From: Candidatus Woesearchaeota archaeon
GTDB taxonomy: Archaea > Nanobdellota > Nanobdellia > SCGC-AAA011-G17 > GW2011-AR17
NCBI GenBank assembly: GCA_964411565.1
Contig: CAYPLB010000001.1
Location: 106,839 to 170,838 of the forward strand
Direction: 5' to 3'
Length of the DNA: 64,000 nucleotides
The translations under genes were made by a program, and so were the position numbers. Under the pieces are notes generated by a model. It was not told where the DNA came from. It made no database searches and worked only from the letters and a program-made list of their open reading frames with translations. This document shows, one piece after another, positions 11,445-39,137 of this stretch (position 1 is the first letter of the stretch; each line of letters begins with the position of its first letter).

Positions 11445-11846
11445 ATGGACCTTGAAAATTGTAAAAAGAGAGGATTAGTTAAGGAAGTAAATGTGGATTT
11501 AAATAGAATGAAATCTCTTTTGAAAGTTGCAAAAAATAAAGAAAAAGCTTCTGATATTTTACCTGAAGAGTTTTTGGAATCAAAAATAAGTCTACTTTAT
11601 GATGCATTAAGGATGATTTTGGAATATTTAGCTTTGAAGGAAAATTTTAAAATATATAATCATGAATGTTATGTCTCCTTTTTGAAAGAAGTTTTGAATG
11701 AATCTCGTTTAGGAGATAAATTTGATGATTTTAGGAAAATAAGGAATTCTATAAATTATTATGGGAAAGAGTTGGATAATGATGAGGCTAGAGAAATTCT
11801 TTTGCAAATGAAGGATTTTATTAAGAAAATAAAGATGAGGAAGTGA
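11445..11846 (+). CDS. HEPN-domain protein, partner of MNT
   Basis: 133 aa, all-helical, immediately contiguous with the MNT gene. A C-terminal RKIRNSINYYG region is a degenerate R-x4-6-H-like HEPN motif. Confidence 0.55.
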   Translation: MDLENCKKRGLVKEVNVDLNRMKSLLKVAKNKEKASDILPEEFLESKISLLYDALRMILEYLALKENFKIYNHECYVSFLKEVLNESRLGDKFDDFRKIRNSINYYGKELDNDEAREILLQMKDFIKKIKMRK

Positions 11847-11883
11847 GTAAGTTTTTTAAAGAGTATTTTATTTCTTTTTTAGA

Positions 11884-13612: not shown

Positions 13613-13653
13613 TAGGTTTTTTGAAAAAGGTTTTGTATATAAATGTAGTGGAG

Positions 13654-26126: not shown

Positions 26127-26375
26127 TTATTTGTATATATTTTTTCTATGTCCAATTTCAATTACAATTATCGTTAACTTACCATTGTTAATGTCAAGTA
26201 TAGCTCTATATTTTCCTATTCTTAATCTAAAATAAGGAGAAGAAATTAATTTTTTTACATGAGCATGAGGCCTAACTCTTGATCTTTCCAAAACTGAGAT
26301 TATTCTAATTTTTTCTTCTTTATTGAGCTTTTTAAGAAATTTTTTAGCTTCATTTGTAAAGAATAATTCAAACAT
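26127..26375 (-). CDS. RelE/ParE family toxin (type II TA)
   Basis: 82 aa. FRLRIGKYRAILDINNGKLTIIVIEIGHRKNIY is the typical RelE/ParE core. Its start codon overlaps the antitoxin stop (TAATG). Confidence 0.75.
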   Translation of the reverse strand: MFELFFTNEAKKFLKKLNKEEKIRIISVLERSRVRPHAHVKKLISSPYFRLRIGKYRAILDINNGKLTIIVIEIGHRKNIYK

Positions 26376-26596
26376 TAGAGATCAATCTCCTTTTTAACTT
26401 CGTCAAGAGAATAAATTCTTCCAGCTTTTATATCAGCTTCAGCTAGTTTGATTCTTTTTTTTGTCTCTTTTGATAATTCCATTGAATCTTCAAGAGCATC
26501 CCAAATTATTTCTTCGTATGATTCTTTGTCATAAAGCTTTCTTTCTTTTAACTTTGTAAGTAATTCCTGACTAATTTGAATAGTTGTTGTCGCCAT
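26375..26596 (-). CDS. antitoxin partner of RelE/ParE toxin
   Basis: The ORF track gives 26375..26641. The likely start is the internal Met at 26596 (MATTTIQISQELLTKL...). It is helical with a 1-nt stop/start overlap with the toxin, and directly repeated gactata motifs lie upstream. Confidence 0.55.
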   Translation of the reverse strand: MATTTIQISQELLTKLKERKLYDKESYEEIIWDALEDSMELSKETKKRIKLAEADIKAGRIYSLDEVKKEIDL

Positions 26597-26637
26597 AATG
26601 ACTATATAAGTGACTATAGTATATAAACCTTTTGTTT

Positions 26638-27861
26638 TCACATTCCTTTGTAATTATATTTATAGAATTTCTTGTAAAATTTAGGTAAAGATTTTATTCT
26701 TAATTTATTCTTTTTTTTGTCTTTGAACCATAATGTAGATTTGTCTGGATAGTCTTCTTCAAATGTTGCTTTTGCTAAAATTACTTCCATATCTTCAGGC
26801 CAGAAGGAATAATCTGGAGTTAGATCAACACCCATCCATTTTTTTATTGTTTTATCCCAAATTTCTCTAGATATTGTGCCAAACCAATAGTTTAATTTTT
26901 TCTCAAAAGGAGCATTTAGATATTTTTCTTTCTTTGTGAAAGTTCTTCCAAATCTTCCCCATTCTAAAATTGGGAAACCTCTTAATCTTAATTTTGAATC
27001 TAATCTTTTTTCATATCTTTCTAAATTTCTTATTAATTTTTGTTTGTCCATTAAATTTTCTTTTAAGAATTTTTTTATTGTTTTACCTTTTGTAATTCCA
27101 TTTTCATATAAGTACATTGCTTGGACTGCTTTTCCATAGTTTTTTGGGAATGTAGGTGTATCAACATGTAACATGCCTCTTACAGGATCGTACATCGAAG
27201 GTCTGCCTCTTTCTAATTCTCCAGGATGTTTTTTACCATCCCAGAAAATGTGACCTATATGGTTATCGTAATGGTAAATATTTTCTAGGCCTAAACGACC
27301 TATAATGATTAAAGACATAACTCCATGAATAGATAATCTGTGTGGTAAAAATGCTAAAACATTGAAATCAAAGAATCTTTTTTTCTTTGCAGCTTTAGAG
27401 TTAATAATGAAAAACATATCATCAAAGTGGCCAGTTGGACAATCATGTCTGTACCTAGAAAATCCTAAACCTCGCATAGCAAATTCTTTTTTGTTTTTTT
27501 TCATTTCTTTAATAATTTTCAAAACTTGATCTTCTTTTAATGGCCAGGCATCAGTGTGTAAGTGCATAACATAATCTGCTCCTGCTTTTATTGCACCAGT
27601 ACAAGATTTTTTTATACAGTCAGCAACTCTGCATCTCATGTTAATACTGTTTCGCATCCAAGGCATATCTTTTGTAACATTAATATCATCGCCTCTTGTG
27701 AAAACATCAATGTCTAAATTTTTTATATGTGGTTTAGGACTTGGATGGTTACTACAAACAGAAATAATATAGTCACCTTTCCAATTCTTTCTAATAATAT
27801 CTATTAAAATAGCTAATTCTTCAAATTTGTCATATAAACTGATAGCAATTCCTATTTTCAT
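26638..27861 (-). CDS. hypothetical protein, possible GT-A-like nucleotide-sugar transferase
   Basis: 407 aa. MKIGIAISLYDKFEELAILIDII resembles the first beta-alpha unit of GT-A enzymes and HLHTDAW is a possible DxD-like site. The assignment is weak. Confidence 0.35.
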   Translation of the reverse strand: MKIGIAISLYDKFEELAILIDIIRKNWKGDYIISVCSNHPSPKPHIKNLDIDVFTRGDDINVTKDMPWMRNSINMRCRVADCIKKSCTGAIKAGADYVMHLHTDAWPLKEDQVLKIIKEMKKNKKEFAMRGLGFSRYRHDCPTGHFDDMFFIINSKAAKKKRFFDFNVLAFLPHRLSIHGVMSLIIIGRLGLENIYHYDNHIGHIFWDGKKHPGELERGRPSMYDPVRGMLHVDTPTFPKNYGKAVQAMYLYENGITKGKTIKKFLKENLMDKQKLIRNLERYEKRLDSKLRLRGFPILEWGRFGRTFTKKEKYLNAPFEKKLNYWFGTISREIWDKTIKKWMGVDLTPDYSFWPEDMEVILAKATFEEDYPDKSTLWFKDKKKNKLRIKSLPKFYKKFYKYNYKGM

Positions 27862-27903: not shown

Positions 27904-28836
27904 TCAAGCTTCTAAAACTTTTAATACTGTATCAACAAGGTTGTCTTTGTCAAGTCCATACTTTTTGTATAAGTCGTTTGGATTTCCACTCTCACCAAAG
28001 AAATCTTTTGGTAAACCAATCTTTGTTAAAGCAGCTCTTCCATCATTCTCAACAATTGCTGAAGCAACCATATCACCAAGTCCACCAATAACTCTGTGAT
28101 CCTCTATAGTTACTATTTGGTCATATTCTCTTGCAACTTTACCAACTGAAGCACCATCAAAAGGATGTATAGAAGGTACATTGATTACTTTTGTTGAAAT
28201 CTTATGTTTTTCTTCAAGTTCTTTAGCAGCTTCTAATGCAGTAGCAATTGTTCCTCCCTGTGCATATACTGCAATATCGTTACCTTGTCTAAGAGTTACT
28301 GTTCTACCTGGAATAAATCTATAATTCTCTTTATTTACTTCTAACATTGGTTGTCTACATAATCTTAAGTAAGCTGGGCTATTGCTTGTAGCAAGATGTT
28401 CCATAATTGCTTTTGTTTCTATTTCATCAGCAGGTTGGTATATTTCTAAACCTTGCATTGCTCGCATAATTGCTAAATCTCTTGTACCCATTTGAGTTGC
28501 ACCGTCTTTACCAATTGCTAAACCTGCATGAGTTCCAACTAAAACTACTGGAGCTCTGTTATAACAAATTGAATTTGCTATTTGGTTTGTTGCAACTTCC
28601 ATGAATGCACCAAAAGTACTGAAGAAAGGTCTGTAACCTGAAAGAGCTAAACCAGATGCAATACTAACAGCATTTGATTCTGCAATTCCACATTCAAAAA
28701 ATCTTTCTGGATATTGTTTGCCAAAAGCTTTTGTTTTTGTAGCACCACATAAGTCTGCACTTACTACTAAAATATTTTCATATCTTGAACCTAAATCTAA
28801 TAAAGATTCACCAAATGATTCTCTTGTTGATTTCAT
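27904..28836 (-). CDS. transketolase, C-terminal subunit (split transketolase)
   Basis: 310 aa. It has pyrimidine-binding and C-terminal domains (FFECGIAESNAVSIASGLALSG...THAGLAIGKDGATQ). It overlaps the N-terminal subunit gene by 4 nt. Confidence 0.9.
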   Translation of the reverse strand: MKSTRESFGESLLDLGSRYENILVVSADLCGATKTKAFGKQYPERFFECGIAESNAVSIASGLALSGYRPFFSTFGAFMEVATNQIANSICYNRAPVVLVGTHAGLAIGKDGATQMGTRDLAIMRAMQGLEIYQPADEIETKAIMEHLATSNSPAYLRLCRQPMLEVNKENYRFIPGRTVTLRQGNDIAVYAQGGTIATALEAAKELEEKHKISTKVINVPSIHPFDGASVGKVAREYDQIVTIEDHRVIGGLGDMVASAIVENDGRAALTKIGLPKDFFGESGNPNDLYKKYGLDKDNLVDTVLKVLEA

Positions 28837-29723
28837 TGATAACCTCCTAATTCAGTCATTGCTTTTTTGTAATCTGTATCTCCAATTTTTTTTGCGTGCC
28901 AGGACATTGTGTTTTCCATGAAAGAAACACCTTTGCCTTTAACAGTGTCAGCAATAATCATTGTTGGTTTGTCAGTAACTTCTCTTGCAATTTTGTAAGC
29001 ATCTAATAAGTCTCTATAATTATGGCCATCAGCTTCAATTACATTCCAACCAAAGGCTTCCCACATTTTGGGAAGTTGTTCTCTTGGAAGTAATCTTGTA
29101 GAAGCTCCATCATTTTGAAATTGGTTATAATCAGTTATTGCAAGTAAGTGACCTAGTTTACCTTCTCTTGCGAATGTTGAAGCAGACATAGCAGCTTCCC
29201 AAACTTGACCTTCTTGACTTTCACCATCACCAATAATTACATAAGTTCTTCTGTCTAAACCTTGAAGTTTTGCAGCTAAAGAATAACCAATAGCTCCACT
29301 TAATCCTTGGCCTAATGAACCTGTTGAAAAGTCAATGTATTCAGGTAAAGCAGTTCTAACTGGATGACCTTCAAGTCTACTGTCAACTTCTCTTAAAGTA
29401 TCAACAAGTTCTTTTTCAGGAATAAAATCACCAACTGCTAAAGCTGCGTATAATGCTGGAGCAGCATGACCTTTTGAAAGAATAAAAATATCTCTTTCAG
29501 TTGGAGCTGGTTCGAAGGTTGGTCTCTCTCCTGTTTTTGAGTGTCTTATTACATTTTTTGTTGGTACACCAAAATTCATCTCCTCAAAAAATAAACTAGT
29601 TACTAAATCAGTAACAGATAAAGATGGACCTGGATGACCTGATTGAGTTTTGTAAAGGGATTCTATGATTAATCTCCTTGCATGTAAACTCTTTTCTTCT
29701 AAATTTTTAATTTTATCTTTCAT
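28833..29723 (-). CDS. transketolase, N-terminal subunit (TPP-binding)
   Basis: 296 aa. QSGHPGPSLSVTDLV, GHAAPALYAALAV and GSLGQGLSGAIG...IGDGESQEG match the TPP/PP domain. Confidence 0.9.
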   Translation of the reverse strand: MKDKIKNLEEKSLHARRLIIESLYKTQSGHPGPSLSVTDLVTSLFFEEMNFGVPTKNVIRHSKTGERPTFEPAPTERDIFILSKGHAAPALYAALAVGDFIPEKELVDTLREVDSRLEGHPVRTALPEYIDFSTGSLGQGLSGAIGYSLAAKLQGLDRRTYVIIGDGESQEGQVWEAAMSASTFAREGKLGHLLAITDYNQFQNDGASTRLLPREQLPKMWEAFGWNVIEADGHNYRDLLDAYKIAREVTDKPTMIIADTVKGKGVSFMENTMSWHAKKIGDTDYKKAMTELGGYQ

Positions 29724-29724
29724 T

Positions 29725-30381
29725 TTATATCCTTAAATATTGATCAGCTACTTTACCTTTTAATATTCCAATCATTGCATGAAGAACATGTAATGATAAA
29801 TCTTCATATGTTAAATTAAAATCATTTCCACCAGTTTGGCCAGGGAATAATGAACCTTCACCAGGAATGATTATACAATGATCTGCTAAGTCTTTTGCAG
29901 TTCCACCATCTTTTCTTGCTCCAACAATTGCAATTGATTTTGCTCCATATTCTTTTGCAACTTCAAAAGCATTAATTACATTTCTAGAAGTTCCACTTCC
30001 AGTTAAACCAATAACTAGATCTCCTTCATCAATTTCATAGTTTCTTAATTGTTGTGCAAAAATTTGATCATAACCAAGATCATTTGCTAAGCCTGTTAAC
30101 ATTGCACCACTTGCGCCTAAATCTACAGTTCTTAGTCCTTGAATTCCTTTAGGTAAAGGTCTACTTTTATCTTCACTAACAAAGGGATGTGTGCTAAGAT
30201 CCATTAAAGCATGAGAAATTGTTCCAGCTGGACCACCATTTGCACATCCATAAACAGTTCCATTATCAAAATAAGTTTGAATTAATGTTTCTGAAGCCCT
30301 TCCTATTTCTTCACGAGGTAGACTCATTAAAGATTGTGCCGTTTCTGTTTGATATTGTCTTAGTAGTGTTTCGATTTTCAT
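29725..30381 (-). CDS. SIS-domain sugar-phosphate isomerase (GmhA/sedoheptulose-7-phosphate isomerase-like)
   Basis: The ORF track starts at 30402. An internal ATG at 30379-30381 is preceded by a strong SD (ctGGAGGaaaaaaATG) and aligns with GmhA N-termini (MKIETLLRQYQ...). The motifs GCANGGPAG...LTGSGTSRN support the family. Confidence 0.8.
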   Translation of the reverse strand: MKIETLLRQYQTETAQSLMSLPREEIGRASETLIQTYFDNGTVYGCANGGPAGTISHALMDLSTHPFVSEDKSRPLPKGIQGLRTVDLGASGAMLTGLANDLGYDQIFAQQLRNYEIDEGDLVIGLTGSGTSRNVINAFEVAKEYGAKSIAIVGARKDGGTAKDLADHCIIIPGEGSLFPGQTGGNDFNLTYEDLSLHVLHAMIGILKGKVADQYLRI

Positions 30382-31972
30382 TTTTTTCCTCCAGTAGTTC
30401 AAAAAGCATTAGTTTTCCTAAGTAGTATAGGAAAATGTTGTAAGGTGTATGATGTAATGGTGCAATATTTGGGAAATGTAGAGCACCAAGCACCTTAACT
30501 TTGTAGAGATCGTAATTATTGGCTTTAATAAAGTTGTGAAAGATTTTTCTGAATCTTAGAAGGTTTCCTTTGGCTAAATAATTGAAATTTATTTGGTTCC
30601 CTTTTTTCTTTACAAAGAATTCGTTTCTTCTAATTATTTCTCCATTGATAATTAATGCATGTTCTAATTTTGCAAAATCATAGTAAATATCTCCAAATTC
30701 TAAAATACCTCCAAAGTCGTGTCTCCAGTCAATTAAAACAGAATCTCCATTGTTTTTCATAATAATATTTTCAGGTTGGAAATCTCCATGAAATAATACT
30801 GGAACACCTTCACAGAATCTGTCCCAATCAATTCTTTCTAATAAAGAAGCCATTGTTGGAACTCTTACACCATTTATAGTTTCTTCTTCATCTTGAATTC
30901 CAGTTCTTAAGTAAAAATCTTTTATTCTACTCTTTGTCTTTCCTTCAATGAAATTTTTACATGCTTCTTTGAATTTAATTTTTTGTTCGTCAGTTAATTC
31001 TTTCTCTTTCCATAAAGTTTCTTTTTGTTTTTTTAGAAGATTTTTGAAATTTTCTTGATCAAAAGTTTCTGAAAGCATTTTTCCTTCAATCATTTCGTAT
31101 GCATAAAAATGAGGTTTACTTAATGTAATCTCAGGAACAATTCCTTTTAGTAAATTTGCTCTATCTACTCTGTCTTTTGCAGATTTTGGATTTGCAAAAT
31201 ATTTTATTACTTTGTTGTTTTCAAAATATATGAATTCGTTTAATTTTGGTAAGACTTTATTTTTACTGAAATTAATACAAGTAATTTCATAAGAGTTTTG
31301 ATCTCCTGTGTTATACCATGTGAAAGGAATTGCTTCTAGTTTATGTTCAATTAGAGTGTTTAACCCATTTGAAACCTGAAGTTCATTTTTTATTAATTCA
31401 CTTTTACTTTCTTCTAAACCTTCCCAGAATTCTTTGTAGTTTTTTACTCCAGCCATTCCAATGAAAGCATTGTCTAAGATTGTTTTGTAGTCTAAACAAA
31501 CTTGTAATAGTATCTCTGTTTCAAATTTGTCAAAGAATTTTATAACTCTATCATTAACAACTTCTGAAATACAAAAGTTTTGTGAGTTTTTTACAGGTGC
31601 AACTCCTATCCAATTCCTTGTAGGTTTGGGAATGTCTTCTGCAACTAATGTATCACATGAAGTAAAAATAAATGGACAATTTAGGTGTGGTTTACAAGAT
31701 AATAAAGAAAGTCCTGGACCTGAGCCTGGGCCGTCCCAATTTTCTACTTCTACAAAAGTAATTAATCTGTCTGGATGAGTTATAGCTAAGTAATCTTTTA
31801 CTTGTTGTGCTTTATATCCAAGAGGTATTACTATTTCAACATCCTTAGGAAATTTTTCAATAATTCTTGATATAGCTGATTTATGGCCAACTGGAAGTAG
31901 AGCATTATTAACTAGTTCTGAATATTTTACTCTGTTATTTTTTCCTGCAGCTAAAATACAAACTTTATACAT
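30311..31972 (-). CDS. bifunctional nucleotidyltransferase / APH-choline-kinase-like kinase
   Basis: 553 aa. The N-terminus has MYKVCILAAGKNNR...FPKDVEIVI...GSGPG (sugar/alcohol-phosphate NTase). The C-terminus has HGDFQPENIIM...LIDWRHDFGG (Brenner HGD-x4-N plus D-x-x motifs of the APH/choline-kinase fold). Its 3' end overlaps the SIS gene start by about 71 nt. Confidence 0.75.
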   Translation of the reverse strand: MYKVCILAAGKNNRVKYSELVNNALLPVGHKSAISRIIEKFPKDVEIVIPLGYKAQQVKDYLAITHPDRLITFVEVENWDGPGSGPGLSLLSCKPHLNCPFIFTSCDTLVAEDIPKPTRNWIGVAPVKNSQNFCISEVVNDRVIKFFDKFETEILLQVCLDYKTILDNAFIGMAGVKNYKEFWEGLEESKSELIKNELQVSNGLNTLIEHKLEAIPFTWYNTGDQNSYEITCINFSKNKVLPKLNEFIYFENNKVIKYFANPKSAKDRVDRANLLKGIVPEITLSKPHFYAYEMIEGKMLSETFDQENFKNLLKKQKETLWKEKELTDEQKIKFKEACKNFIEGKTKSRIKDFYLRTGIQDEEETINGVRVPTMASLLERIDWDRFCEGVPVLFHGDFQPENIIMKNNGDSVLIDWRHDFGGILEFGDIYYDFAKLEHALIINGEIIRRNEFFVKKKGNQINFNYLAKGNLLRFRKIFHNFIKANNYDLYKVKVLGALHFPNIAPLHHTPYNIFLYYLGKLMLFELLEEKNENRNTTKTISNRNGTIFNESTS

Positions 31973-33227
31973 TCACTCCTCCTCCAAGGTGTTCAGAAAC
32001 AATTCTCCCTGATTGTCTTCCAGAATCATCACTGATCCTTTCAACATCATCAAGTTCTGGAGTTGATGTTTCGTAAGCTACATAATCTGTAACTGAAATA
32101 ACTCTGTGAACAATACCTTTTCTTGATGTCCAAAATTGTCCAGGTTTTCTTCTTTCTTTGTAATCATTTAAATTTAAAGATAAAACCTCTTTGTTGGTTT
32201 CTTCTCTTGGTTTTGTTAAATCAATTTCAATTCCATCAATAACATCTGCTTCACCTTCTGTTAAATAATTTGTTTCAAGCTTGTTTAAGTGGTATTGTAA
32301 ACTACATTGATTTCCAGCTGTCATCCAAATTTGTTTTAATACATGAAGGTTTGTCCAAGAAATCCAAAGTTCTCCACCCCAAGGTTTGTTAACTTTTTTT
32401 GGATCCTTTATTATTTTGAATGTTGTTAAAGGTCTTTCTATTTGGGTTTGTCCGTCGTCGATAATTTCTTTTATTAAAAACCCTTGAGGGACTTCAGAAT
32501 GTGTTGAAAACGCTAAGAAATCTTTGCTAATTTCTTTTAGTTGATATTCTTCATTTGGAATTGTAATAAAACCTTGGCCTTCTCTAAGTAAAACTTTTTC
32601 TGAAGTGAAAGAATTTTTTATCTCTAATATAGCTTGACCTTTGTGAATGTAAGTTGTCCTTAAATTTTTTGATTTGAAAGTTTCAGTTTCACTTTTGTTG
32701 TTATATAACCATTTTTCAAAGGTGTATCTTGGTGTTTTATCAATAAGTTCTATTTTTATTGAACTTTTATCTTCACTAAAAAATCTTTTATTTATTTCAA
32801 TACAAGCATCGCAAACAGCACCTTCAGCTGAATTAGATTCTGTTACAAAGTCTGCTGACATTTTAGCTTCTCTTCTTGCATTTTGAGGAGCTATTCCAAA
32901 TGCACATGCTTTTAAAATTGGAGCATCATGAATACTGTCACCAATAAATATAGTTTCATTTAAATTAAAGTTTTTTTTCATGTAATCAGATCTGCTTTCT
33001 TCTGAAACTAGTTCTAAATCATAACCCATATCATCTTGGATTCTTTTTTTTGTAATGAGAAAACCTCTCTTGTCTGCTGTTATAAATTTTATTTTTATTT
33101 TGTCTTTAATTAATTTTAGTCCATCTGAATCATGTGGTCCAAATATTTTGTAAATTTTGCCTTTTTCAGAATATAAAAATTGTCCTGTGGTCATAACACC
33201 ATCTACATCTAGTATAAAGTTTTTCAT
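31965..33227 (-). CDS. fusion: HAD-IIIA (KdsC-like) phosphatase + type II phosphomannose-isomerase-like cupin
   Basis: 420 aa. The N-terminus has LDVDGVMTTGQ...GDSIHDAPILKACAFGIA (KdsC/YrbI-type HAD). The C-terminus has KPWGGELWI and SLQYHLNKLETNYLTEGEADV, which are PMI type II cupin motifs. Confidence 0.7.
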   Translation of the reverse strand: MKNFILDVDGVMTTGQFLYSEKGKIYKIFGPHDSDGLKLIKDKIKIKFITADKRGFLITKKRIQDDMGYDLELVSEESRSDYMKKNFNLNETIFIGDSIHDAPILKACAFGIAPQNARREAKMSADFVTESNSAEGAVCDACIEINKRFFSEDKSSIKIELIDKTPRYTFEKWLYNNKSETETFKSKNLRTTYIHKGQAILEIKNSFTSEKVLLREGQGFITIPNEEYQLKEISKDFLAFSTHSEVPQGFLIKEIIDDGQTQIERPLTTFKIIKDPKKVNKPWGGELWISWTNLHVLKQIWMTAGNQCSLQYHLNKLETNYLTEGEADVIDGIEIDLTKPREETNKEVLSLNLNDYKERRKPGQFWTSRKGIVHRVISVTDYVAYETSTPELDDVERISDDSGRQSGRIVSEHLGGGVNV

Positions 33228-34037
33228 TTATTTTCCTCCCAGTAAATTAATTACTGCTCTTTGCATTTCTTCAACAGGTGCATCTTGTCCTGTATATAAT
33301 TTAAATTGTGCTGCAGCCTGACCAACACACATAACATAACCAGGAATAACAGTTAAATCTAATTCTTTTGCTTCTCTTATTATTCTTGATTCAATAGGTG
33401 AAGTAACAACATCATAAACAACTTCAAAATTGTTTAGATTCATTTGAGGATAAGGAGTTTCATCAGAATTCATACCTATTGAAGTAGCATTAATTAGTAA
33501 ATATCCATTTTCATTTCTTCTTTCTTCCCAATCAATAACTTTTGCTTCTAAAGTTGATGCAAGTTGTTCAGCTTTTCCTCTTGATCTGTTACTTATGTAT
33601 AAGTCTCCACCTTTTTCAATTACAGCAAGACCAATTGCTTTTGCTACACCACCAGCACCTAGCATTAAAATTTTTTTTCCGTTAATTTCTGGAAGAGCAT
33701 CTTTTGCACCTGAATAATCTGTATTGTATCCAATAAGTCTGCCATTATCATTTAGAATTGTGTTTACTGCACCAATAGTTGAAACTTTTGGATCAATTAA
33801 ATCTAAAAAAGGAATTACTAATGGTTTAAATGGCATTGATACACTACAACCTCTAATGCCAGTTGCTCTAACTGTTTGTAATAATTCTGGAAGTTTTGTT
33901 TCGTCTTCTAAACCTAAAGGCTGATAATGGAAATTTAATCCTAAAGCATTATATCCAACATTGTGAACTGTAAAACCAAATTTACCAGGGTATTTTGCTA
34001 AAGAAATACATAGTGTAGGTGGGGTATTTTTTTTCAT
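33228..34037 (-). CDS. shikimate/quinate 5-dehydrogenase family oxidoreductase
   Basis: 269 aa. SVSMPFK, GYNTDYSGA and GAGGVAKAIG (Rossmann) are hallmarks of AroE-family enzymes. Confidence 0.8.
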   Translation of the reverse strand: MKKNTPPTLCISLAKYPGKFGFTVHNVGYNALGLNFHYQPLGLEDETKLPELLQTVRATGIRGCSVSMPFKPLVIPFLDLIDPKVSTIGAVNTILNDNGRLIGYNTDYSGAKDALPEINGKKILMLGAGGVAKAIGLAVIEKGGDLYISNRSRGKAEQLASTLEAKVIDWEERRNENGYLLINATSIGMNSDETPYPQMNLNNFEVVYDVVTSPIESRIIREAKELDLTVIPGYVMCVGQAAAQFKLYTGQDAPVEEMQRAVINLLGGK

Positions 34038-34074
34038 GTTTTTGATCCTATTTTATCCTCTTTATAAATTTTAT

Positions 34075-34791
34075 TTATTTAAGATAGTCAATAGTTTTTT
34101 GAGTACTATCTGGGGAGTAATCGTCAATAAAAAGTATTTCTCCTTCTTTTAATTCTCTACCAATTTCTCTTTGAGTTGCTTCAATTAATGCATCTTCTGG
34201 AAGAGTTCTTGTTAAAGCAATATTTTTTCTTACTCCTGCTGTTATTGAACCAGCTAATCCTAAAGGAGAATCTTCCCAAACTGCACAATACTTTGGTGGT
34301 ACTCTTAACATTCCTGCAGCATAAACAAATACATCTGGTTCTGGTTTGTGTCTTAAATCCAGTTCTGAAGTTAAACAAATATTTCCATCGAATAATGCAC
34401 TTGTTCCTCTAATCTTATCTGAAATATAAAATTGATCTGAGCCTGATGCAACTGCCACTGGTGTATTAGGAAATGCTTCTCTTATTTTTTGATAATGTTC
34501 TAAGAAACCTGGAACATGAGAAGCAACTTCTGCATACCATGCATGAATCATTGGCATTCTAACTTTTGAAAGCTCTTGAGCTGTTACTTTTCCTTTTAAT
34601 CCATGAACATCAATTAATACTTCTAAACCTGGGATTTCAGGTTTTCCAGAAAAATGTCTTCTTAAGTCTGGATCAAATTTTACATTATATGGTTTTAAAA
34701 TTTCTGTGTTCATGTTAACTAATGCTTGTTCTATGTCAATTACTATTCCGTCATGATCAAATAAGAATCCTTTTATGTTAGTGTCTACCAT
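34075..34791 (-). CDS. HAD-superfamily hydrolase (beta-phosphoglucomutase/phosphatase-like)
   Basis: 238 aa. FLFDHDGIVID is HAD motif I (DxD). Confidence 0.7.
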   Translation of the reverse strand: MVDTNIKGFLFDHDGIVIDIEQALVNMNTEILKPYNVKFDPDLRRHFSGKPEIPGLEVLIDVHGLKGKVTAQELSKVRMPMIHAWYAEVASHVPGFLEHYQKIREAFPNTPVAVASGSDQFYISDKIRGTSALFDGNICLTSELDLRHKPEPDVFVYAAGMLRVPPKYCAVWEDSPLGLAGSITAGVRKNIALTRTLPEDALIEATQREIGRELKEGEILFIDDYSPDSTQKTIDYLK

Positions 34792-34823
34792 TTGGCAACA
34801 ACAATGATTTCGTTTTAAAAGTT

Positions 34824-35687
34824 TTATGAAGAAATAGTAGATTCTCTTAGTGCTAAAACTGCACCGAAAAGACCTGCATTGTCGCCTAAAGAAGAAGGTT
34901 TTATTATAGGCTGCATTTTGAAGTTTTCTAGAATTTTGTTTGTTTCATTTATTAGTTTTGGATGACTTGCGCCTCCACCAATTACAATTGAATCTGGATC
35001 AAATGTTCTAATAGCATTATGACAAAAAATTGCTAAAATTTTTGCAGTTTCTTTTAATGTTTTTTCTGTCATTTCATTATTAGTATACCAAATCTCACTA
35101 GTTCTCTCTAGATTGCCTCCTCTTTTATTGTGTCTATTTAGAATGCTTTTACCTTTTAGGATACTATCCCAAGTTCCACTTTTTGCTCCAAAAATAATTG
35201 AATCCGATTCTATATCAAAAATTGTGTTACTAATCTCTCCAGCTTTTCCGTTTGATCCATTGTAAAGATTTTTGTTAATAATAATTCCTGCACCAACTCC
35301 AGTACCTAAAGTAAAACCAATCATATTTTGTGTATTTCTGCCAGCACCAATTCTGTTTTCAGCTAATGTGAAACAATTTCCATCATTTTCTAAAACTAGA
35401 GGAATGTTAATGTTTAGTTCTTTTTTTAAGTCAACTCCATTTAATATTGGTACATTTGGTGTATCAATAATGGTTGTTTCTTTGAATAAACCTGGAACTG
35501 CAAAGCCTATTCCTGATATAGAAAATTCATTTGAGAACTCTTTTAATTGTTCTTTTATTTGGTTAATCATAAAATCTTTTCCTTTATGAATTGCAGTTTC
35601 TAGAATAGTTTTTTTAATTAAATTATTATTTTCGTCAATTAAAGCAAATGCTATTTTTGTTCCACCTAAGTCAATCCCTATTTCCAT
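34824..35687 (-). CDS. ROK/glucokinase-like sugar kinase (actin-like ATPase fold)
   Basis: 287 aa. MEIGIDLGGTKIAFALID is the phosphate-1 motif and GFTLGTGVGAGII is the phosphate-2/adenosine motif. No Zn CxC motif is seen. Confidence 0.7.
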   Translation of the reverse strand: MEIGIDLGGTKIAFALIDENNNLIKKTILETAIHKGKDFMINQIKEQLKEFSNEFSISGIGFAVPGLFKETTIIDTPNVPILNGVDLKKELNINIPLVLENDGNCFTLAENRIGAGRNTQNMIGFTLGTGVGAGIIINKNLYNGSNGKAGEISNTIFDIESDSIIFGAKSGTWDSILKGKSILNRHNKRGGNLERTSEIWYTNNEMTEKTLKETAKILAIFCHNAIRTFDPDSIVIGGGASHPKLINETNKILENFKMQPIIKPSSLGDNAGLFGAVLALRESTISS

Positions 35688-35778
35688 CTTTAATCAGAAA
35701 GTATAAGATTTATTTATAAAATTTTGGTATTAATACTTTACCAATAATTTTATAAGTTTGGTCAAATAAAGGAGGAAA

Positions 35779-37146
35779 ATGGAAAATGTGGTGTTTATTG
35801 ATCCTTCACATAAAGGATCTACTGAGGAATTTAATTGTGGATTACTAACAATTGGAACTTATTTAGATTCTAAAGGTTATAAAGTTAATTTGATTTTTTC
35901 TTCAAATGATTATAGTGTGTTTGATCAATATATTAATGATGAAACTGTTTATGTAGGTATTTCTGCAATGACTACACAAATTCCAGAAGCATTGAAAGTT
36001 TTGAAATATGTAAAAGAAAAATGGCCTAAAGTAACAATTGTTTTTGGAGGTTATCATTCGATTTTGTATCCTGAACAAACTTTAGAACATAAAGATATAG
36101 ATTTTATTTGTTTAGGAGATGGTGTTGAACTTTGTGAAGAATTAATTTTAGCTTTGAAAGGAAAAAAAGAATTTAAGGATATTAAGGGTTTAGGTTATAA
36201 AGAAAATGGTAATTTGAAGTTTAATGAGAAATGTGCTCATACAGATCTTTCTATTATTCCAAGGATGAATTATGGTTTAGTTCATGATTTTAAGCCAATT
36301 GAAAGAAAATTACATTTTAATAAAGGTGAAAAAGTTAAAACAGGAATTGTTTTCTCAGGGAATGGCTGTCCCTTTTCTTGTACTTTTTGTATTAATTCTG
36401 CTATGCAAAGGAAATGGCAAGGAAGAGATATAGAATTAGTCTTAGATGAAATTGAATGGTTTATTAATGAACATGAAGTTAATGATATTTATTTGATAGA
36501 TGAATTATTTTTTGTAAAGAAAGAAAGGTTCTTTCAATTTTTAGATGGGATTGAAAAAAGAAATTTGAATTTTACTTGGAACTCTCAATGTAGAGCAGAA
36601 TATTTTGGAGATCATTATTTATCTGTAGATGTTTTGAAGAGAATGAGAAAATTGGGAGCTAGTGGAATTTTGTTAGGAGTTGAATCTGGCTCACAGAGAA
36701 TGTTAAATAAAATGAGGAAAGGAATTAAAGTTAGTAGTGTCATCAAAGCAGTTGAAATGATGGGGGAAGCTGGAATTGTTCCAAGAGCTAGTTTTATTAT
36801 TGGAATGCCTGGTGAAACTCGAGACGATATGTTGAGAACTTTTAAGTTGATCATAGAATTGTATAAAATAAATTCGAATCTGTATTTACATGGACCAAGT
36901 ATTTATAGACCTTATCCAGGTGGTTTAATGTATGATGAATTGTTGGAATCAGGACATTATAGTCATCCAAAAAAATTGGAGAAGTGGGATTTAGTAGATT
37001 CTTCTTGGAATGATAGATATCTTCTAAAAGATTCAGATTGGATTGAAGAAAAAGATTTAATTTTAGATATTAAGGATACTTTAAATGTTTTTAAGAAATT
37101 TAAGAAAAGAAAAATGTTTGATGTTGCTAGATTCTTTTTGAAGTAA
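35779..37146 (+). CDS. B12-binding radical SAM enzyme (class B rSAM, likely methyltransferase)
   Basis: 455 aa. An N-terminal cobalamin-binding-like domain is followed by GNGCPFSCTFC (C-x3-C-x2-C). Confidence 0.8.
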   Translation: MENVVFIDPSHKGSTEEFNCGLLTIGTYLDSKGYKVNLIFSSNDYSVFDQYINDETVYVGISAMTTQIPEALKVLKYVKEKWPKVTIVFGGYHSILYPEQTLEHKDIDFICLGDGVELCEELILALKGKKEFKDIKGLGYKENGNLKFNEKCAHTDLSIIPRMNYGLVHDFKPIERKLHFNKGEKVKTGIVFSGNGCPFSCTFCINSAMQRKWQGRDIELVLDEIEWFINEHEVNDIYLIDELFFVKKERFFQFLDGIEKRNLNFTWNSQCRAEYFGDHYLSVDVLKRMRKLGASGILLGVESGSQRMLNKMRKGIKVSSVIKAVEMMGEAGIVPRASFIIGMPGETRDDMLRTFKLIIELYKINSNLYLHGPSIYRPYPGGLMYDELLESGHYSHPKKLEKWDLVDSSWNDRYLLKDSDWIEEKDLILDIKDTLNVFKKFKKRKMFDVARFFLK

Positions 37147-37361: not shown

Positions 37362-38324
37362 ATGAAAAATTTTTATCTTAGAATATTGCATGTATTTATT
37401 TTATTGAGTTTACTTTTTGCAGTTTTTTGGAAAGTTGGTGTTGATAGTATTATTGAAGTTTTTGTAAATCTTAATCCAATATGGTTGATTCCTTTTGTTG
37501 TAATCTATTTATCAACAAAGTTGATGGCAACTTTGAATCTTGCACTTCTGTTTAAAGCAATAAAGAAAAAAGTTTCTTATTTGATGTTGTTGAAATTTTT
37601 GTTATTGACAAATGCTGTAACTTTATTTTTTCCTAGTAGAACCGGAGAATTGAGTTTGCCAATATTATTGAAGAAACATAAAAATTTTGATTATGGAGAA
37701 GTTTTGTCTGTACAATTAATAGATAAATTGATTACTTTTGTTTTTTTTGGTGGATTAGCTTTATTTGGTTTAATATTTTTGTTTGATTTATCTAATAACT
37801 ATTTGTATATTTTGATCTTTACCTTAGTTTTACTTGTTTGTGTTGGATTTGCTGCATGGTCGGATAAATTTAGATTTTATGTGAAAAAATATGTATTAAG
37901 GAAATATTCTAAATATTTTAGGAATTTTTCTTCAAGTTTTAAGTATGCTTTTAGGAATAGGAAAAAATATTTGATAGTTAATTTTTTTGTAACCTTATCT
38001 CTTTTAATTGTTACTTTTATGGGAGGAGTATTTTTATTCTTAACTTTTGGACAGGAAGTTTCTTTGTTGCATGTTGCAATGATACAAGCTGTTGTAACAA
38101 TGATAACTTTACTTCCTATTCCTTTTTCAGGTCTAGGTTTGAAAGAAATTTCTGGAATTTATATGTATGGAATTATTGGAGTTCCGTATGCTGTTTCAGT
38201 TAATTATTTTTTGTTTAACTTTTTGTTTAAGTATATATTTGGATCTGTTGTTTATGGGATATTTAATAAAGAATTCTTAGGGAAGAAAAGAAATCATGTT
38301 GTTTCCAGTGTTGAGGATAGTTGA
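37362..38324 (+). CDS. integral membrane protein, flippase-like (UPF0104/LPG-synthase TM-like)
   Basis: 320 aa with about 8 TM helices. Proteins of this type often accompany GT2 genes. Confidence 0.4.
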   Translation: MKNFYLRILHVFILLSLLFAVFWKVGVDSIIEVFVNLNPIWLIPFVVIYLSTKLMATLNLALLFKAIKKKVSYLMLLKFLLLTNAVTLFFPSRTGELSLPILLKKHKNFDYGEVLSVQLIDKLITFVFFGGLALFGLIFLFDLSNNYLYILIFTLVLLVCVGFAAWSDKFRFYVKKYVLRKYSKYFRNFSSSFKYAFRNRKKYLIVNFFVTLSLLIVTFMGGVFLFLTFGQEVSLLHVAMIQAVVTMITLLPIPFSGLGLKEISGIYMYGIIGVPYAVSVNYFLFNFLFKYIFGSVVYGIFNKEFLGKKRNHVVSSVEDS

Positions 38325-39137
38325 ACCTTTTTCTTGTAAAAATTTTAATCCTCTTTCAAAATCTTCTTTATTTTCAAAATAGTAAATATTTTTATCTTTT
38401 AGTTTGAATAAAAAGGAAGTTATATTTTTTTCAATTGTTGTTTCATCAATTTGTTTCTTTGCAAAATATTCTTCTGTTTCTTTGAAAGTTTTGATTGTTC
38501 CTGTGTCAAGCCAAGTGAAAACAACACCTTTTAGTTCTTTTTCAAGTAAAGCATTTGAACCATTTGAAACTTGAATCTCATCTTTTATTAGAGTCTTATT
38601 ATTTGTTAATGCACTCCAGAAAGTTTCATAGTCCTTTATTCCTAAAGCTCCAATATAAGCATGTTTGTTGTCACATTTTACTTTGTCATCAAGTCTTATT
38701 ATAATATTTTTTTCATCCATTTTTACAGAACAAAATCTTTCAACATCATCGATCTTAGAAATTCCCATCCAATTTATAATTGGTTTTGGTATTTCTTCTA
38801 ATACAATAGTATCAGCTGCTAAGTGAATAAATGGACATTGAAGGTGATTTTTACACATTAACATAGAGTAACCAGGACCTGAACCTATACCTTCAAATTT
38901 TTCAATATTAACAAAAGTGATTTTATGATCTGGATGTGCAAATTTAATGTATTCAATAAGTTTTTCTTTGAGATATCCTACAGCAATTACAATCTCAACA
39001 TCTTTTGGAAATTTTTCTATTAAATAAGATATTACTCCCTTGTTATTTATAGGAAGCATAGCTTTGTTCATTGTTGCAGCTAATTTTCCCATCCTAGTTC
39101 CTTTACCTGCTGCTAAGATACAAACTTTGTATTCCAT
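38277..39137 (-). CDS. nucleotidyltransferase, paralog of the N-terminal domain of the 30311..31972 protein
   Basis: 286 aa. MEYKVCILAAGKGTRMG...FPKDVEIVIAVGY...GSGPGYS is about 45% identical by eye to the other NTase over its full length. Confidence 0.75.
   Translation of the reverse strand: MEYKVCILAAGKGTRMGKLAATMNKAMLPINNKGVISYLIEKFPKDVEIVIAVGYLKEKLIEYIKFAHPDHKITFVNIEKFEGIGSGPGYSMLMCKNHLQCPFIHLAADTIVLEEIPKPIINWMGISKIDDVERFCSVKMDEKNIIIRLDDKVKCDNKHAYIGALGIKDYETFWSALTNNKTLIKDEIQVSNGSNALLEKELKGVVFTWLDTGTIKTFKETEEYFAKKQIDETTIEKNITSFLFKLKDKNIYYFENKEDFERGLKFLQEKGSTILNTGNNMISFLP

Follow-up and report, generated by a model that had tools for sequence, protein, structure and literature searches.

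Gene content and setting of the operon

The window analysed here, a stretch of 64,000 nucleotides from a Candidatus Woesearchaeota archaeon, carries eight tightly packed open reading frames on its minus strand between positions 27904 and 35687. In transcription order these encode a ROK-family sugar kinase, a HAD-IA hydrolase, a shikimate-dehydrogenase (SDH)-like oxidoreductase, a HAD-cupin fusion, a nucleotidyltransferase (NTase)-kinase fusion that we call NTK, a SIS isomerase and the two halves of a transketolase (TktN and TktC). Spacers of 32 nt and 37 nt follow the ROK and HAD-IA genes, 0 nt separate the SDH-like gene from the HAD-cupin gene, the latter overlaps NTK by 8 nt, and SIS and TktN are 1 nt apart, with a 4-nt overlap between TktN and TktC. 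The ORF coordinates and junction lengths bear out the packed block of the preliminary description, and profile searches (Pfam, NCBIfam) agree with the domain labels it gave to the eight proteins.

The operon is probably transcribed from a divergent intergenic region of 91 nt (35688–35778) between the ROK gene (minus strand) and a B12-radical-SAM gene (plus strand). Read on the minus strand, this region has TTTATAAATA some 30 nt ahead of the ATG of ROK, a candidate archaeal TATA box by resemblance. A scan with bacterial promoter and terminator models was uninformative, with 45 sites where 47 were expected. At the other end, the transcription unit probably runs on beyond TktC, through a gene 42 nt further along (26638–27861, minus strand) as well as a toxin-antitoxin pair. 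The former, probably operon gene nine, has no Pfam or NCBIfam family and no PDB relative detectable by sequence. Its modelled fold is of the GT-A type, and it is a candidate glycosyltransferase for the product of the module. The wider surroundings are indeed a glycosylation island, as had been proposed, with GT1/GT4 and GT2 proteins, three PMT_2 GT-C proteins, a flippase and a GDP-mannose dehydratase.

The first operon gene (34824–35687, minus strand) matches Pfam ROK (9e-51, 173 bits) and reaches no NCBIfam equivalog cut-off; visual inspection shows neither its ExGH motif nor its Cys-rich zinc motif to be conserved. The second (34075–34791, minus strand) encodes a beta-phosphoglucomutase/YqaB-like HAD-IA hydrolase (HAD_2, 6e-07) that scores 71.6 bits against TIGR02009, for which the cut-off is 153.

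The third protein (33228–34037, minus strand) is an NAD(P) oxidoreductase of the shikimate-dehydrogenase family that travels with the module. The earlier label of AroE-like reductase holds to that extent, but the protein is not an AroE: it groups with SdhL, falls below every AroE equivalog cut-off of NCBIfam and has lost the carboxylate-binding motif. Its nearest solved relative is SdhL of H. influenzae (HI0607; 1npy, 5.6e-44), and it also matches the 5-ketofructose reductase 7cok (6.5e-25). By eye, in AroE numbering, the K/D catalytic pair is kept and the SKSP motif reads GKFG. This is probably a sugar ketoreductase or oxidoreductase.

The next protein (31965–33227, minus strand) was described as a KdsC-like phosphatase fused to a PMI-type cupin, and profile and family searches confirm both parts. 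Residues 1–150 form the KdsC-like HAD phosphatase (57.7 bits against TIGR01670 KdsC, cut-off 106.95), which also matches the KDN-9-P phosphatase model; some 125 residues without an assigned fold separate it from the C-terminal cupin. The latter is type II mannose-6-phosphate-isomerase-like. Searched singly, the cupin of this protein has no Pfam match; PF01050 (PMI C-terminal) matches 21 of the 23 members of its family, which keeps Q-x-H...E...H and STPExDDVxRxxDD.

NTK (30311–31972, minus strand, 553 aa) is the marker gene of the module. The presumed APH fold of its kinase is upheld by a Pfam APH match in the C-terminal half; the N-terminus, of sugar-1-phosphate NTase fold, gives a weak GlmU-type match. 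The catalytic motifs of the kinase domain are intact and invariant; its structural neighbours (choline kinase, fructosamine kinase, APH) are no guide to whether it acts on an anomeric hydroxyl. Both folds of the reported fusion are present, but the NTase domain is degenerate in this window, with its signature Gly and Lys lost. A stand-alone canonical NTase (38277–39137, minus strand; NTP_transf_3), a paralogue of this domain, lies 2.6 kb away. Its signature is G-G-R-K and its top PDB matches are LicC (3.9e-7), RmlA and HddC. Such stand-alone NTases occur alongside 22 of 25 degenerate-signature NTKs; among NTKs with a canonical signature, 5 of 60 in cellular loci and 0 of 77 in viral loci have one (Fisher p 1e-12). 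Because the fused domain has lost its signature residues, nucleotidyl transfer would probably be taken over by the stand-alone protein.

The SIS protein (29725–30381, minus strand) is a GmhA-like sugar-phosphate isomerase of a distinct subfamily. In favour of the earlier GmhA-like label, its top NCBIfam model is gmhA and its top PDB matches are all phosphoheptose isomerases (8e-13 to 7e-10); however, its 71 bits are far under the gmhA equivalog cut-off of 209. The family alignment has an HPFVSEDK insert and invariant D61, E193 and H201. Because this alignment conserves N-terminal residues, the start is best placed at ATG 30381, which gives a 71-nt overlap with the disordered tail of NTK (residues 535–553, pLDDT <50); gene callers gave 30327.

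TktN (28833–29723, minus strand; Transketolase_N 1e-39, NF004559 267.6 bits) is the N-terminal, ThDP-binding half of the transketolase, and TktC (27904–28836, minus strand; NF004559 251.5 bits) the C-terminal half with the Pyr and C domains. Summed, they reach 519 bits against NF004559, above the cut-off of 488. The top PDB match of TktC is 6yaj (1.3e-69), the C-terminal chain of the split transketolase of Carboxydothermus, with which the R, S, H, D and R substrate-binding positions align. The transketolase here is about 50% identical to that functional enzyme.

Conservation of a six-gene core

Six genes recur as a core: TktN, TktC, the GmhA-like SIS, NTK, the KdsC-like HAD-cupin and the SdhL-type oxidoreductase. 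A cupin-NTK-SIS-TktN-TktC block with SDH and HAD occurs, in similar order, in 16 of the best 80 GTDB loci, spanning DPANN archaea, Omnitrophota, Pirellulales, Dehalococcoidia, Sedimenticola, an alphaproteobacterium and SAR11, and in about 23 of the best 80 IMG/VR viral contigs. The two remaining genes are lineage-specific additions outside this conserved module. Among the best 80 GTDB loci, ROK is confined to same-species contigs (L001–L006) apart from two weak matches on the opposite strand (L047 and L053, 25–27% identity), and HAD-IA is found beyond the species only at a contig edge (L007, 76% identity). The proposed eight-gene unit is thus narrowed to a widespread core of six, with ROK and HAD-IA not conserved alongside.

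Module genes are also found fused, as NTK-SIS (P0063), dicupin-NTK, NTK-GatZ, HAD-dicupin, dicupin-SIS, SDH-HAD, HAD-NTase and HAD-NTase-mutarotase. These fusions, and the recurrence in unrelated genomes, support the view that the genes act as one functional unit. The universal partner of NTK is the cupin rather than the SIS protein: 76 loci have a cupin, 65 a HAD and 18 a SIS. An SDH gene is present in 37 of the best 80 cellular and 30 of the best 80 viral loci, and a reductase of either kind (SDH-like or SDR) in roughly 75% of loci. Viral loci carry a HAD of about 120 aa with 1xpj- and GmhB-like PDB matches, phosphatase function being kept there by non-orthologous displacement.

In type-1 loci SIS always directly precedes TktN, and TktN is a separate ORF of about 255–385 aa in almost all of them, proteobacterial and viral ones included. 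A split form in almost all of the loci with this block, regardless of host lineage, indicates that the transketolase travels with the module. The possibility had been raised that tkt and aroE belong to aromatic amino-acid clusters; instead, the transketolase and the AroE-like gene follow sugar-activation genes, not aromatic or pentose-phosphate contexts.

A commoner sister module has a GatZ/KbaZ-like aldolase-fold protein in place of transketolase and SIS, and GT90-like genes follow many of its copies. One locus (L069) has both types in tandem, therefore the two probably make different sugars. The module is widespread and uncharacterised, in archaea, bacteria and viral contigs.

Candidate routes and products

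The analysis establishes which genes are present, how they are conserved and fused, their folds and the state of their motifs. The substrate, the sugar and the nucleotide are inferred, and the sequence of reactions given here is modelled on AfhE/AfhF and GmhA/HldE/GmhB. The split transketolase would supply a ketose phosphate, most likely sedoheptulose 7-phosphate, from which the GmhA-like SIS, the PMI-type cupin or both may form an aldose phosphate. The APH-fold domain of NTK would phosphorylate the anomeric C1, the KdsC-like HAD would remove the terminal phosphate, and a nucleotidyltransferase, here probably that at 38277–39137, would make the NDP-sugar. The downstream GT-A protein could then transfer the sugar onto a surface glycan. 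The SdhL-type oxidoreductase may add redox tailoring somewhere along the route, and ROK and HAD-IA may be local feeder enzymes for hexose phosphate.

We see about an even chance that the operon is a nucleotide-sugar module for an activated higher-carbon sugar, probably a heptose, destined for surface glycans. A heptose is plausible: the transketolase, the nearest-family assignment to GmhA and a GT9 heptosyltransferase, which lies two genes after Tkt in one locus only, are consistent with the higher-carbon sugar proposed earlier. Transaldolase/FSA genes, found beside seven modules, are a further link to C7 metabolism. Several findings count against it. Both SIS and cupin have intact catalytic residues where one isomerase is enough for sedoheptulose 7-phosphate to heptose 7-phosphate. 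The cupin, although the universal partner of NTK, is left without a role, and a plain heptose route offers no place for the SdhL/SDR step. The low gmhA score of SIS, the tandem modules of L069 and the rarity of GT9 neighbours also weigh against a heptose.

A CDP-polyol route with LicC/LicA logic would give the reductase such a place: a ketose phosphate would be dephosphorylated, reduced to an alditol by SdhL/SDR, re-phosphorylated by the APH/choline-kinase-like domain and cytidylylated, yielding a phospho-polyol on glycans or lipids. NTK has the architecture of a LicC-LicA fusion, reductases are common in the module and SDH is fused to HAD in some proteins; yet about a quarter of loci lack any reductase, and the two conserved aldose-forming isomerases would be superfluous. 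Within a distance of 10 kb the window also has two CDP-alcohol phosphatidyltransferase genes, but such transferases accompany the module in just 1 of 80 loci, the adjoining conserved transferases being GT-A, GT90-like and GT9 Leloir-type. The sole characterised kinase homologue targets a sugar phosphate at its anomeric carbon, and aldose-1-epimerase-HAD fusions point to a hemiacetal intermediate. A precedent is C. jejuni CDP-6-glucitol, which is made from a ketose phosphate with a reductase (PMC10918830). On balance we consider this route unlikely.

Quite unlikely, in our view, is an octose or larger sugar. Here transketolase would add C2 to a hexose 6-phosphate, supplied via ROK and an isomerase, to give octulose 8-phosphate, which SIS would convert to octose 8-phosphate ahead of the C1 kinase, an 8-phosphatase and the NTase, in parallel to the lincosamide GDP-octose pathway (LmbR/N/P/K/O). 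Such a route uses transketolase and two isomerases linearly, which is impossible in the heptose model. However, PMI-type isomerases give 2S aldoses, known transketolases make little use of glucose 6-phosphate as an acceptor, and the transketolase here retains the Asp that in canonical enzymes selects 2R-hydroxy acceptors. The KdsC family works on the terminal phosphate of C8/C9 sugars, in keeping with the TIGR01670 and KDN-9-P phosphatase matches, and transaldolase/FSA genes adjoin seven modules. The operon is headed by a ROK hexokinase-like gene, but ROK is not conserved with the module.

A salvage route to an NDP-hexose (NDP-mannose or an epimer) is very unlikely. It would use the cupin, kinase, phosphatase and NTase, with kinase and phosphatase replacing a phosphomutase, and transketolase and SIS feeding fructose 6-phosphate in a reduced DPANN cell. 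DPANN genomes are metabolically reduced, but free-living bacteria and viruses, in which the supply of fructose 6-phosphate sets no limit, likewise have transketolase and SIS with the module. Cupin, NTK and HAD do form the universal core, like bifunctional PMI-GMP enzymes, and ROK and HAD-IA resemble feeder enzymes; against this, the GatZ/KbaZ-like enzyme of the sister module implies a non-standard ketose phosphate, and the GDP-mannose dehydratase implies that GDP-mannose is made anyway. Finally, that housekeeping genes (a pentose-phosphate transketolase, an AroE for aromatic amino acids) lie by chance beside glycosylation genes is effectively refuted by the fusions and by a synteny that is shared among archaea, bacteria of at least six phyla and viral contigs. 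Although archaea ordinarily have split transketolases and AroE for housekeeping, and the two halves jointly exceed the transketolase equivalog score, the AroE-like protein is SdhL-grouped without the shikimate carboxylate-binding motif, and no other shikimate-pathway gene occurs in the 64,000-nt window.

Comparison with known pathways

The preliminary description held that this combination matches none of the described pathways. That is too strong: the UDP-arabinofuranose route of phage HY126 shares the NTase plus APH-like enzyme, the SIS and the HAD (PMC13326640). It comprises a SIS isomerase, AfhE (NTase and APH-like C1 kinase) and AfhF (HAD), and its AfhE-type enzyme phosphorylates arabinose-5-P at C1, a step that precedes those of the HAD phosphatase and the fused NTase (PMC13326640). 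The kinase domains of NTK and of the RB69 AfhE-type enzyme are homologues (hhalign probability 95.4%), and the phage route is the closest characterised relative of the module. The module differs from the textbook heptose pathway in its enzyme types, an APH-fold kinase and a KdsC-like HAD-cupin. Nevertheless, the logic of isomerase, kinase, phosphatase and NTase that had been proposed remains the best reading, and it is shared with the AfhE/AfhF route, in which isomerase, C1 kinase, terminal phosphatase and NTase follow one another as in GmhA/HldE/GmhB.

The operon and its surroundings

The eight minus-strand ORFs of the operon fill positions 27904-35687 with spacers of 0-37 nt or overlaps, so the tightly packed block reported in the preliminary description is borne out by ORF mapping. 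In transcription order they encode a ROK-like kinase, a HAD-IA protein, an SDH-like protein, a HAD-cupin fusion, NTK, an SIS protein and the two chains of a split transketolase (TktN and TktC). NTK (553 aa, 30311-31972, minus), which we use as the module marker, fuses an NTase-like N-terminal domain to a kinase of APH/choline-kinase fold. Pfam and NCBIfam searches confirm the domains that had been assigned from the sequence, with the exception of the cupin, which is seen at the family level only. The proposed glycosylation-island setting is likewise evident, with GT4, GT2, three PMT_2 proteins, a flippase and a GDP-mannose dehydratase around the operon. The window is AT-rich (GC about 29%), its flanks hold archaeal housekeeping genes (FEN-1/XPG, Trm5/TYW2 and an intein-bearing ORF), and there are no tRNA genes within its 64 kb. 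An identical NTK protein is present on 22 metagenome contigs, and among the GTDB loci the closest genome is a Black Sea Nanoarchaeota MAG (L007, NTK identity 87%).

About 30 nt ahead of the operon's first gene, within a 91-nt divergent spacer, is a TATA-like element, TTTATAAATA. The transcription unit probably extends through a 407-aa GT-A gene (26638-27861, minus), located 42 nt past TktC, and a DUF7557/ParE pair. The antitoxin-like DUF7557 gene (26375-26641, minus) shares 4 nt with the end of the GT-A gene and is followed by the ParE-family toxin gene (26127-26375, minus), which suggests that a toxin-antitoxin pair has been appended at the 3′ end of the sugar operon. A scan of the window for sigma-70 promoters and intrinsic terminators performed no better than on shuffled sequence, as one would expect in an archaeon of such AT-rich DNA.

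The island includes two genes for B12-binding radical SAM proteins (35779-37146 and 42595-43896, both plus). The first is transcribed divergently from the promoter region of the operon, and weak matches to such genes turn up near other NTK modules too (in 20 of 80 loci). At a distance of 15 kb from the module there is a gene for a GDP-mannose 4,6-dehydratase (50594-51640, plus; PF16363, 1e-127), an enzyme whose relatives in other organisms dehydrate GDP-heptose. A further candidate activation module, at 20557-25011 (minus), comprises a 606-aa NTP_transf_3/IspD-like protein, a DUF711 protein and a fusion of a methyltransferase with a CDP-alcohol phosphatidyltransferase; this module is about 90% identical in L007 and occurs in no other locus. 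Another CDP-alcohol transferase, with a methyltransferase, is located at 40695-42136. The island also hosts genes for a 611-aa Ser/Thr protein kinase (13654-15489, minus) and for a 1028-aa, probable surface protein that carries Ig-like domains (Big_13 and Y_Y_Y; 3524-6610, plus). Elsewhere in the window is a 1310-aa ORF (53143-57075, plus) in which intein splicing and LAGLIDADG homing-endonuclease domains are found.

The NTK family and its modules

The survey of related genomes that had been proposed shows that the block recurs across archaea, bacteria and viral contigs. NTK has at least 749 close relatives, and an NTK profile search among 1.84 billion representatives returned 904 clusters at 50% identity (E<=1e-30). 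We analysed the best 80 of 315 GTDB loci and the best 80 from the 294 IMG/VR contigs encoding NTK relatives; the window proteins were mapped onto the fetched loci and all ORFs were clustered. Near-constant neighbours of NTK are a PMI-type cupin (76 cellular loci) and a KdsC-like HAD (65 loci).

The modules are of two types. In type 1, that of the window, SIS, TktN and TktC come immediately after NTK. This arrangement is found in 16 of the best 80 cellular loci, in three more identified by look-up and in about 23 of the best 80 viral loci; its hosts include DPANN archaea, Omnitrophota, Pirellulales, Dehalococcoidia, Sedimenticola, an alphaproteobacterium and SAR11. Transketolase is split in nearly every type-1 carrier, which argues that it is part of a mobile module and not of host housekeeping. 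In type 2 (57 cellular and 46 viral loci, among the best 80 fetched from each set) a GatZ/KbaZ-like protein of about 335 aa and class-II-aldolase fold replaces both SIS and transketolase. Its Pfam and PDB matches are weak yet consistent (Pfam 6e-6, PDB 2fiq 1.5e-4; e.g. L032 11586-12608 and loci L019-L089), and its DHCGPG and HID motifs are invariant. This protein is a distant relative of GatZ/KbaZ and the class-II aldolases, and a candidate ketose-phosphate 4-epimerase or aldolase. IMPase-family genes lie alongside it in 11 loci.

About three quarters of the loci carry a reductase, either an SdhL-type SDH (40 loci) or a FabG-like SDR (26 loci), and 22 have a C-methyltransferase-like gene near NTK. 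ROK and HAD-IA map only to the window's own lineage. The suggestion of one eight-gene functional unit therefore stands for the module genes but not for these two. The module parts are also tied together by fusion to one another. NTK is fused to SIS (P0063), to a dicupin (P0021, 818 aa, with the cupin part N-terminal of NTK) and to GatZ (P0105); the HAD-dicupin fusion is the window's own protein; and further examples are dicupin-SIS, SDH-HAD, HAD-NTase, HAD-NTase-aldose-epimerase, HAD-IMPase and HAD-GHMP kinase. Conserved neighbourhoods and fusions exclude a chance juxtaposition of genes. In an uncultured alphaproteobacterium (AG-464-G03, locus L069, about 4650-15000) a type-2 module (HAD, aldolase-like, GT-A-like, cupin, NTK) is directly followed on the same strand by a type-1 module (cupin, NTK, SIS, TktN, TktC, SDH). 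This tandem suggests that the two NTK modules make different sugars and are probably not redundant.

Viral NTK modules are of both types and form co-directional arrays, often on contigs of 100-500 kb, e.g. L107 (7052-12800), L108 (GVMAG-S-3300000325-26) and L129 (a 494-kb contig); these carry the IMG/VR label and may be giant virus, phage or cellular. In the DPANN type-1 loci (L009-L016 and L092) the gene immediately upstream of NTK, transcribed divergently from it, invariably encodes a conserved zinc-ribbon-like CxxC...CxxC protein of about 104 aa; in L009, for instance, it occupies 9593-9910 (minus), with the stand-alone NTase on one side and NTK on the other. The window lacks this protein, which could be a regulator or an IS remnant.

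The AF2 model of NTK has a pLDDT of 91. Fold searches place its N-terminal domain with sugar-1-phosphate NTases such as RmlA, GalU, LicC, MurU and HddC, and its C-terminal domain with the APH, choline and fructosamine kinases; HGD...N and the metal-binding Asp of the latter are invariant. Against PDB, the NTK sequence profile gave only weak NTase matches, and no functional name for NTK proteins appears among the sources that give names.

The fused NTase had been credited with the activation step, a role that its signature speaks against. Where RmlA and LicC have GxGxR...K the window NTK reads G-N-R-N; it is instead the stand-alone 286-aa NTase (38277-39137, minus) that reads G-G-R-K. We scored each locus for a stand-alone canonical NTase within 10 kb of NTK. 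Such a gene accompanies 22 of the 25 degenerate NTKs in cellular loci, 5 of the 60 canonical ones and none of the 77 canonical NTKs in viral loci; the association between degenerate signature and stand-alone NTase is strong (Fisher p 1e-12), and every DPANN type-1 locus pairs the two. The fused domain in the window is probably dead, with a non-catalytic or structural role. From the degenerate signature and the co-occurrence counts we infer that the paralogue at 38277-39137 provides the missing activity.

An experimentally studied enzyme has a similar build. The UDP-arabinofuranose route of phages HY126, RB69 and DLP3, treated in a 2026 paper on phage DNA that carries arabinosylated 5-hydroxycytosine, is assigned there to AfhE/AfhF (HY126), ORF055c/053c+052c/051c (RB69) and gp83/82/81 (DLP3) (PMC13326640). 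As described there, an SIS arabinose-5-phosphate isomerase makes the aldose phosphate; AfhE, which has a MurU/LicC-like NTase N-terminus and an APH/choline-kinase-like C-terminus, phosphorylates C1 of arabinose-5-phosphate; AfhF, a small HAD phosphatase, takes off the 5-phosphate; and the NTase domain of AfhE makes UDP-Araf (PMC13326640). The hhalign alignment of the NTK profile to ORF052c, the RB69 kinase, covers 238 columns (probability 95.4%, E 1.7e-8), and both have the motifs HGDxxxxN and IDxRxxFG..YG..YDxAK, although identity is only about 21%. The NTase halves align weakly (probability 34%). BLAST found no link between NTK and the phage enzyme, and tblastn of NTK against GenBank phages hit one uncultured marine virus only and did not match RB69. 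On the strength of the kinase alignment and the shared motif we regard the NTK family as a distant AfhE relative of the same architecture, and the AfhE pathway as the best experimental guide to its mechanism.

Module enzymes and the predicted sugar

Pfam detects all three transketolase domains. TktN and TktC together score 519 bits against the NF004559 cut-off of 488 (NCBIfam). Between TktC and the C-chain of the Carboxydothermus split transketolase identity is about 50%, and the substrate-binding arginine, serine, histidine and aspartate positions line up. Given the domains, this score and the aligned positions, TktN/TktC is by sequence an ordinary sugar-phosphate transketolase.

The top PDB matches of the SIS protein are all phosphoheptose isomerases (best 8e-13) and gmhA, its best NCBIfam model, scores 71 bits where the cut-off is 209; no KdsD/GutQ model appears among its matches in either collection. 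In the family alignment the protein belongs to a separate subfamily, marked by an HPFVSEDK insert; D61, E193 and H201 are invariant, and we take these to occupy the places of the GmhA catalytic or metal residues. The start at ATG 30381 is favoured over that of the gene callers, since the family conserves residues upstream of the latter. The revised gene overlaps the NTK tail by 71 nt, and this tail is disordered (pLDDT <50 at NTK residues 535-553). The second isomerase is the cupin. PF01050 matches 21 of 23 relatives (best E 9e-37); the window cupin alone has no significant Pfam match, though its metal ligands are present. The family shares Q-x-H...E...H and STPExDDVxRxxDD motifs with invariant Q36, H38, E43 and H99, and from these residues the cupin is type II PMI-like with its metal ligands intact.

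The window HAD is KdsC/YrbI-like, with TIGR01670 as the best model (57.7 against 106.95) and PRK09484 at 43.1 against 208; it does not classify as a GmhB-type HAD, and neither KdsA nor KdsB is conserved in the loci examined. In 43 of the 80 viral loci it is replaced by a HAD of about 120 aa with DxDGT and TGR motifs (e.g. L107 7052-7420 and L128 11615-11974), which suggests that the phosphatase step is kept by non-orthologous displacement. The PDB matches of this small HAD are the Pnkp1 phosphatase domain (5e-11), 1xpj (0.0012) and GmhB (0.002). Its comparison with RB69 ORF051c was negative by hhalign (probability 0.9%) and by BLASTP.

The nearest structure to the SDH-like protein is SdhL HI0607 of H. 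influenzae (1npy, 5.6e-44), and all AroE NCBIfam cut-offs are missed (best 218.8 against 252). Inspected by eye, the protein has GKFG in place of the shikimate carboxylate-binding SKSP motif and Thr in place of the Tyr; these positions were placed using what we take to be the AroE residues, Ser-x-Ser of SKSP and Tyr215 (E. coli numbering). The reductase is thus AroE-like, as first described, but does not belong to AroE itself. It also matches a 5-ketofructose reductase of the same family, which shows that the fold is able to reduce keto-sugars.

We propose the following route. Transketolase would produce a ketose phosphate, most simply S7P, and an isomerase would turn it into an aldose phosphate. 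The APH-fold kinase would phosphorylate C1 and the KdsC-like HAD would strip the terminal phosphate; in its exocyclic diol phosphate a heptose may resemble Kdo-8-P. By analogy, the kinase would act on the omega-phosphate form first and the HAD afterwards. The stand-alone NTase would form the NDP-sugar, which the GT-A enzyme would then transfer. The profile of this 407-aa protein had no sequence match in PDB, and only a fold search identified it as GT-A.

The indirect hints of an NDP-heptose product are the transketolase, one GT9 neighbour and transaldolase/FSA neighbours. The GT9 heptosyltransferase occurs in a single type-1 locus (L090), with none found by BLAST in the others, and so is unusable as general evidence for heptose. 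Transaldolase/FSA genes adjoin seven modules and fit C7 or C8 ketose phosphate metabolism. Other features fit a plain heptose route poorly: by their residues type 1 holds two catalytically intact isomerases, of which the cupin and not SIS is universal, and the SdhL/SDR step is left without a role. With the tandem modules of L069, these misfits mean that the product could be a non-manno heptose, an octose or something else. An octose could arise by C2 extension of a hexose phosphate, following the logic of lincosamide GDP-octose.

A CDP-polyol, made by LicC/LicA logic plus a reductase, is disfavoured. GT90-like genes follow many type-2 modules and, together with the GT9 neighbour, favour an NDP-sugar donor over a CDP-alcohol; the conserved isomerases and the homology to AfhE also argue against it. 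A tetrose (threose/erythritol) formed by transketolase cleavage is chemically possible but unsupported, and a poor fit with a GmhA-like isomerase. The remaining candidates were rejected: Kdo/KDN (no conserved KdsA/NeuB or CMP-type synthetase), AHBA/aminoshikimate (ROK, HAD, SDH and transketolase recall RifN/M/I/Orf15, but there is no DAHP synthase, DHQ synthase or dehydratase), C7-cyclitol (no sugar-phosphate cyclase) and a MEP-like route (the thiamine enzyme is transketolase, not DXS).

It is possible, if on balance doubtful, that NTK modules form a large unrecognised family of nucleotide-sugar pathways in DPANN, CPR, other bacteria and large viruses, making rare higher-carbon or epimeric sugars from ketose phosphates generated in situ. 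If true, these would come from split transketolase with a GmhA-like isomerase, or from a GatZ/KbaZ-like epimerase or aldolase. The SdhL class would then be a sugar oxidoreductase, the first physiological role of this orphan shikimate-DH class, and the window product a sugar undescribed in archaeal glycans, e.g. a non-manno heptose or an octose. NTK is found in glycan loci of DPANN, CPR, SAR11, SAR86 and Omnitrophota, whose surfaces are almost unknown, and on hundreds of viral contigs. With one module solved, an entire class of surface-glycan genes would gain an annotation; new sugars could come to light, and SdhL-type dehydrogenases and the family-less GT-A enzyme could be given a function. 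The AfhE link would make activation by an APH-like C1 kinase, a HAD and an NTase general and no phage peculiarity, and the degenerate NTase with its stand-alone paralogue may be a clean natural case of pseudo-enzyme complementation.

Comparison with known systems

The AfhE route and the window module have in common the fusion of an N-terminal NTase to a C-terminal APH-like kinase, an SIS isomerase giving an aldose phosphate and a HAD phosphatase for the terminal phosphate. Beside viral NTK copies, the small HAD weakly matches 1xpj, a structure reported for AfhF-type phosphatases. However, the SIS here is GmhA-like, not KdsD-like, and the HAD is KdsC-like; the module adds transketolase, a PMI-type cupin and an SdhL oxidoreductase, and its setting is surface glycosylation rather than DNA hypermodification. 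The sugar of the window module is almost certainly not arabinose.

NDP-glycero-manno-heptose synthesis follows the same sequence of ketose phosphate, isomerase, C1 kinase, terminal phosphatase and NTase; GmhA is the family nearest to SIS, and S7P, the likely precursor, is a transketolase product. The window kinase is nevertheless APH-fold, not a ribokinase (HldE) or GHMP kinase (HddA), the phosphatase is KdsC-type and not GmhB-type, and SIS is far below the GmhA cut-off with an insert of its own. The PMI-type cupin, SdhL enzyme and dedicated split transketolase are extras. The GmhA/HldE/GmhB-type logic of the preliminary description is thus retained through the AfhE analogy, whereas the enzymes themselves, a KdsC-like HAD and an APH kinase, are unlike HldE and GmhB.

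The lincosamide GDP-octose pathway uses the transaldolase LmbR, the isomerase LmbN, the kinase LmbP, the phosphatase LmbK and the NTase LmbO. There, too, a C-C-forming enzyme of pentose-phosphate type feeds a GmhA-like isomerase, followed by kinase, phosphatase and NTase. It differs in having a transaldolase instead of a transketolase, a GHMP kinase and a GmhB-like phosphatase, and in belonging to an actinomycete antibiotic cluster.

LicC/LicA (LicCA when fused, in some bacteria) likewise places an NTase ahead of a choline-kinase-fold kinase, but acts on an amino-alcohol, with LicD-type transferases and no isomerases, transketolase or phosphatase. The annotated neighbouring gene families of NTK include no LicD-type gene and are rich in sugar isomerases. 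The type II PMI-GMP enzymes (AlgA/XanB/ManC class) share the Q-x-H...E...H and EDDIVR-like signature of the cupin, and NTase and cupin are likewise fused in P0021; here a kinase and a phosphatase take the place of phosphomannomutase. SdhL is the best solved relative of the SDH-like protein, and both have an altered N-terminal substrate motif. That such an enzyme is embedded in a sugar-activation module suggests a sugar substrate.

No published description of a transketolase, SIS and NTase module was found in a search that also took in the literature on archaeal heptose enzymes and the C. jejuni capsule. The claim of an undescribed activated-sugar pathway needs dividing accordingly. The pathway logic and the NTase plus APH-kinase type are already known, from AfhE. 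What is undescribed in the literature found, and new here, is the particular combination of a split transketolase, a GmhA-like SIS, a PMI cupin, a KdsC-like HAD, SdhL and a pseudo-NTase paired with a stand-alone NTase.
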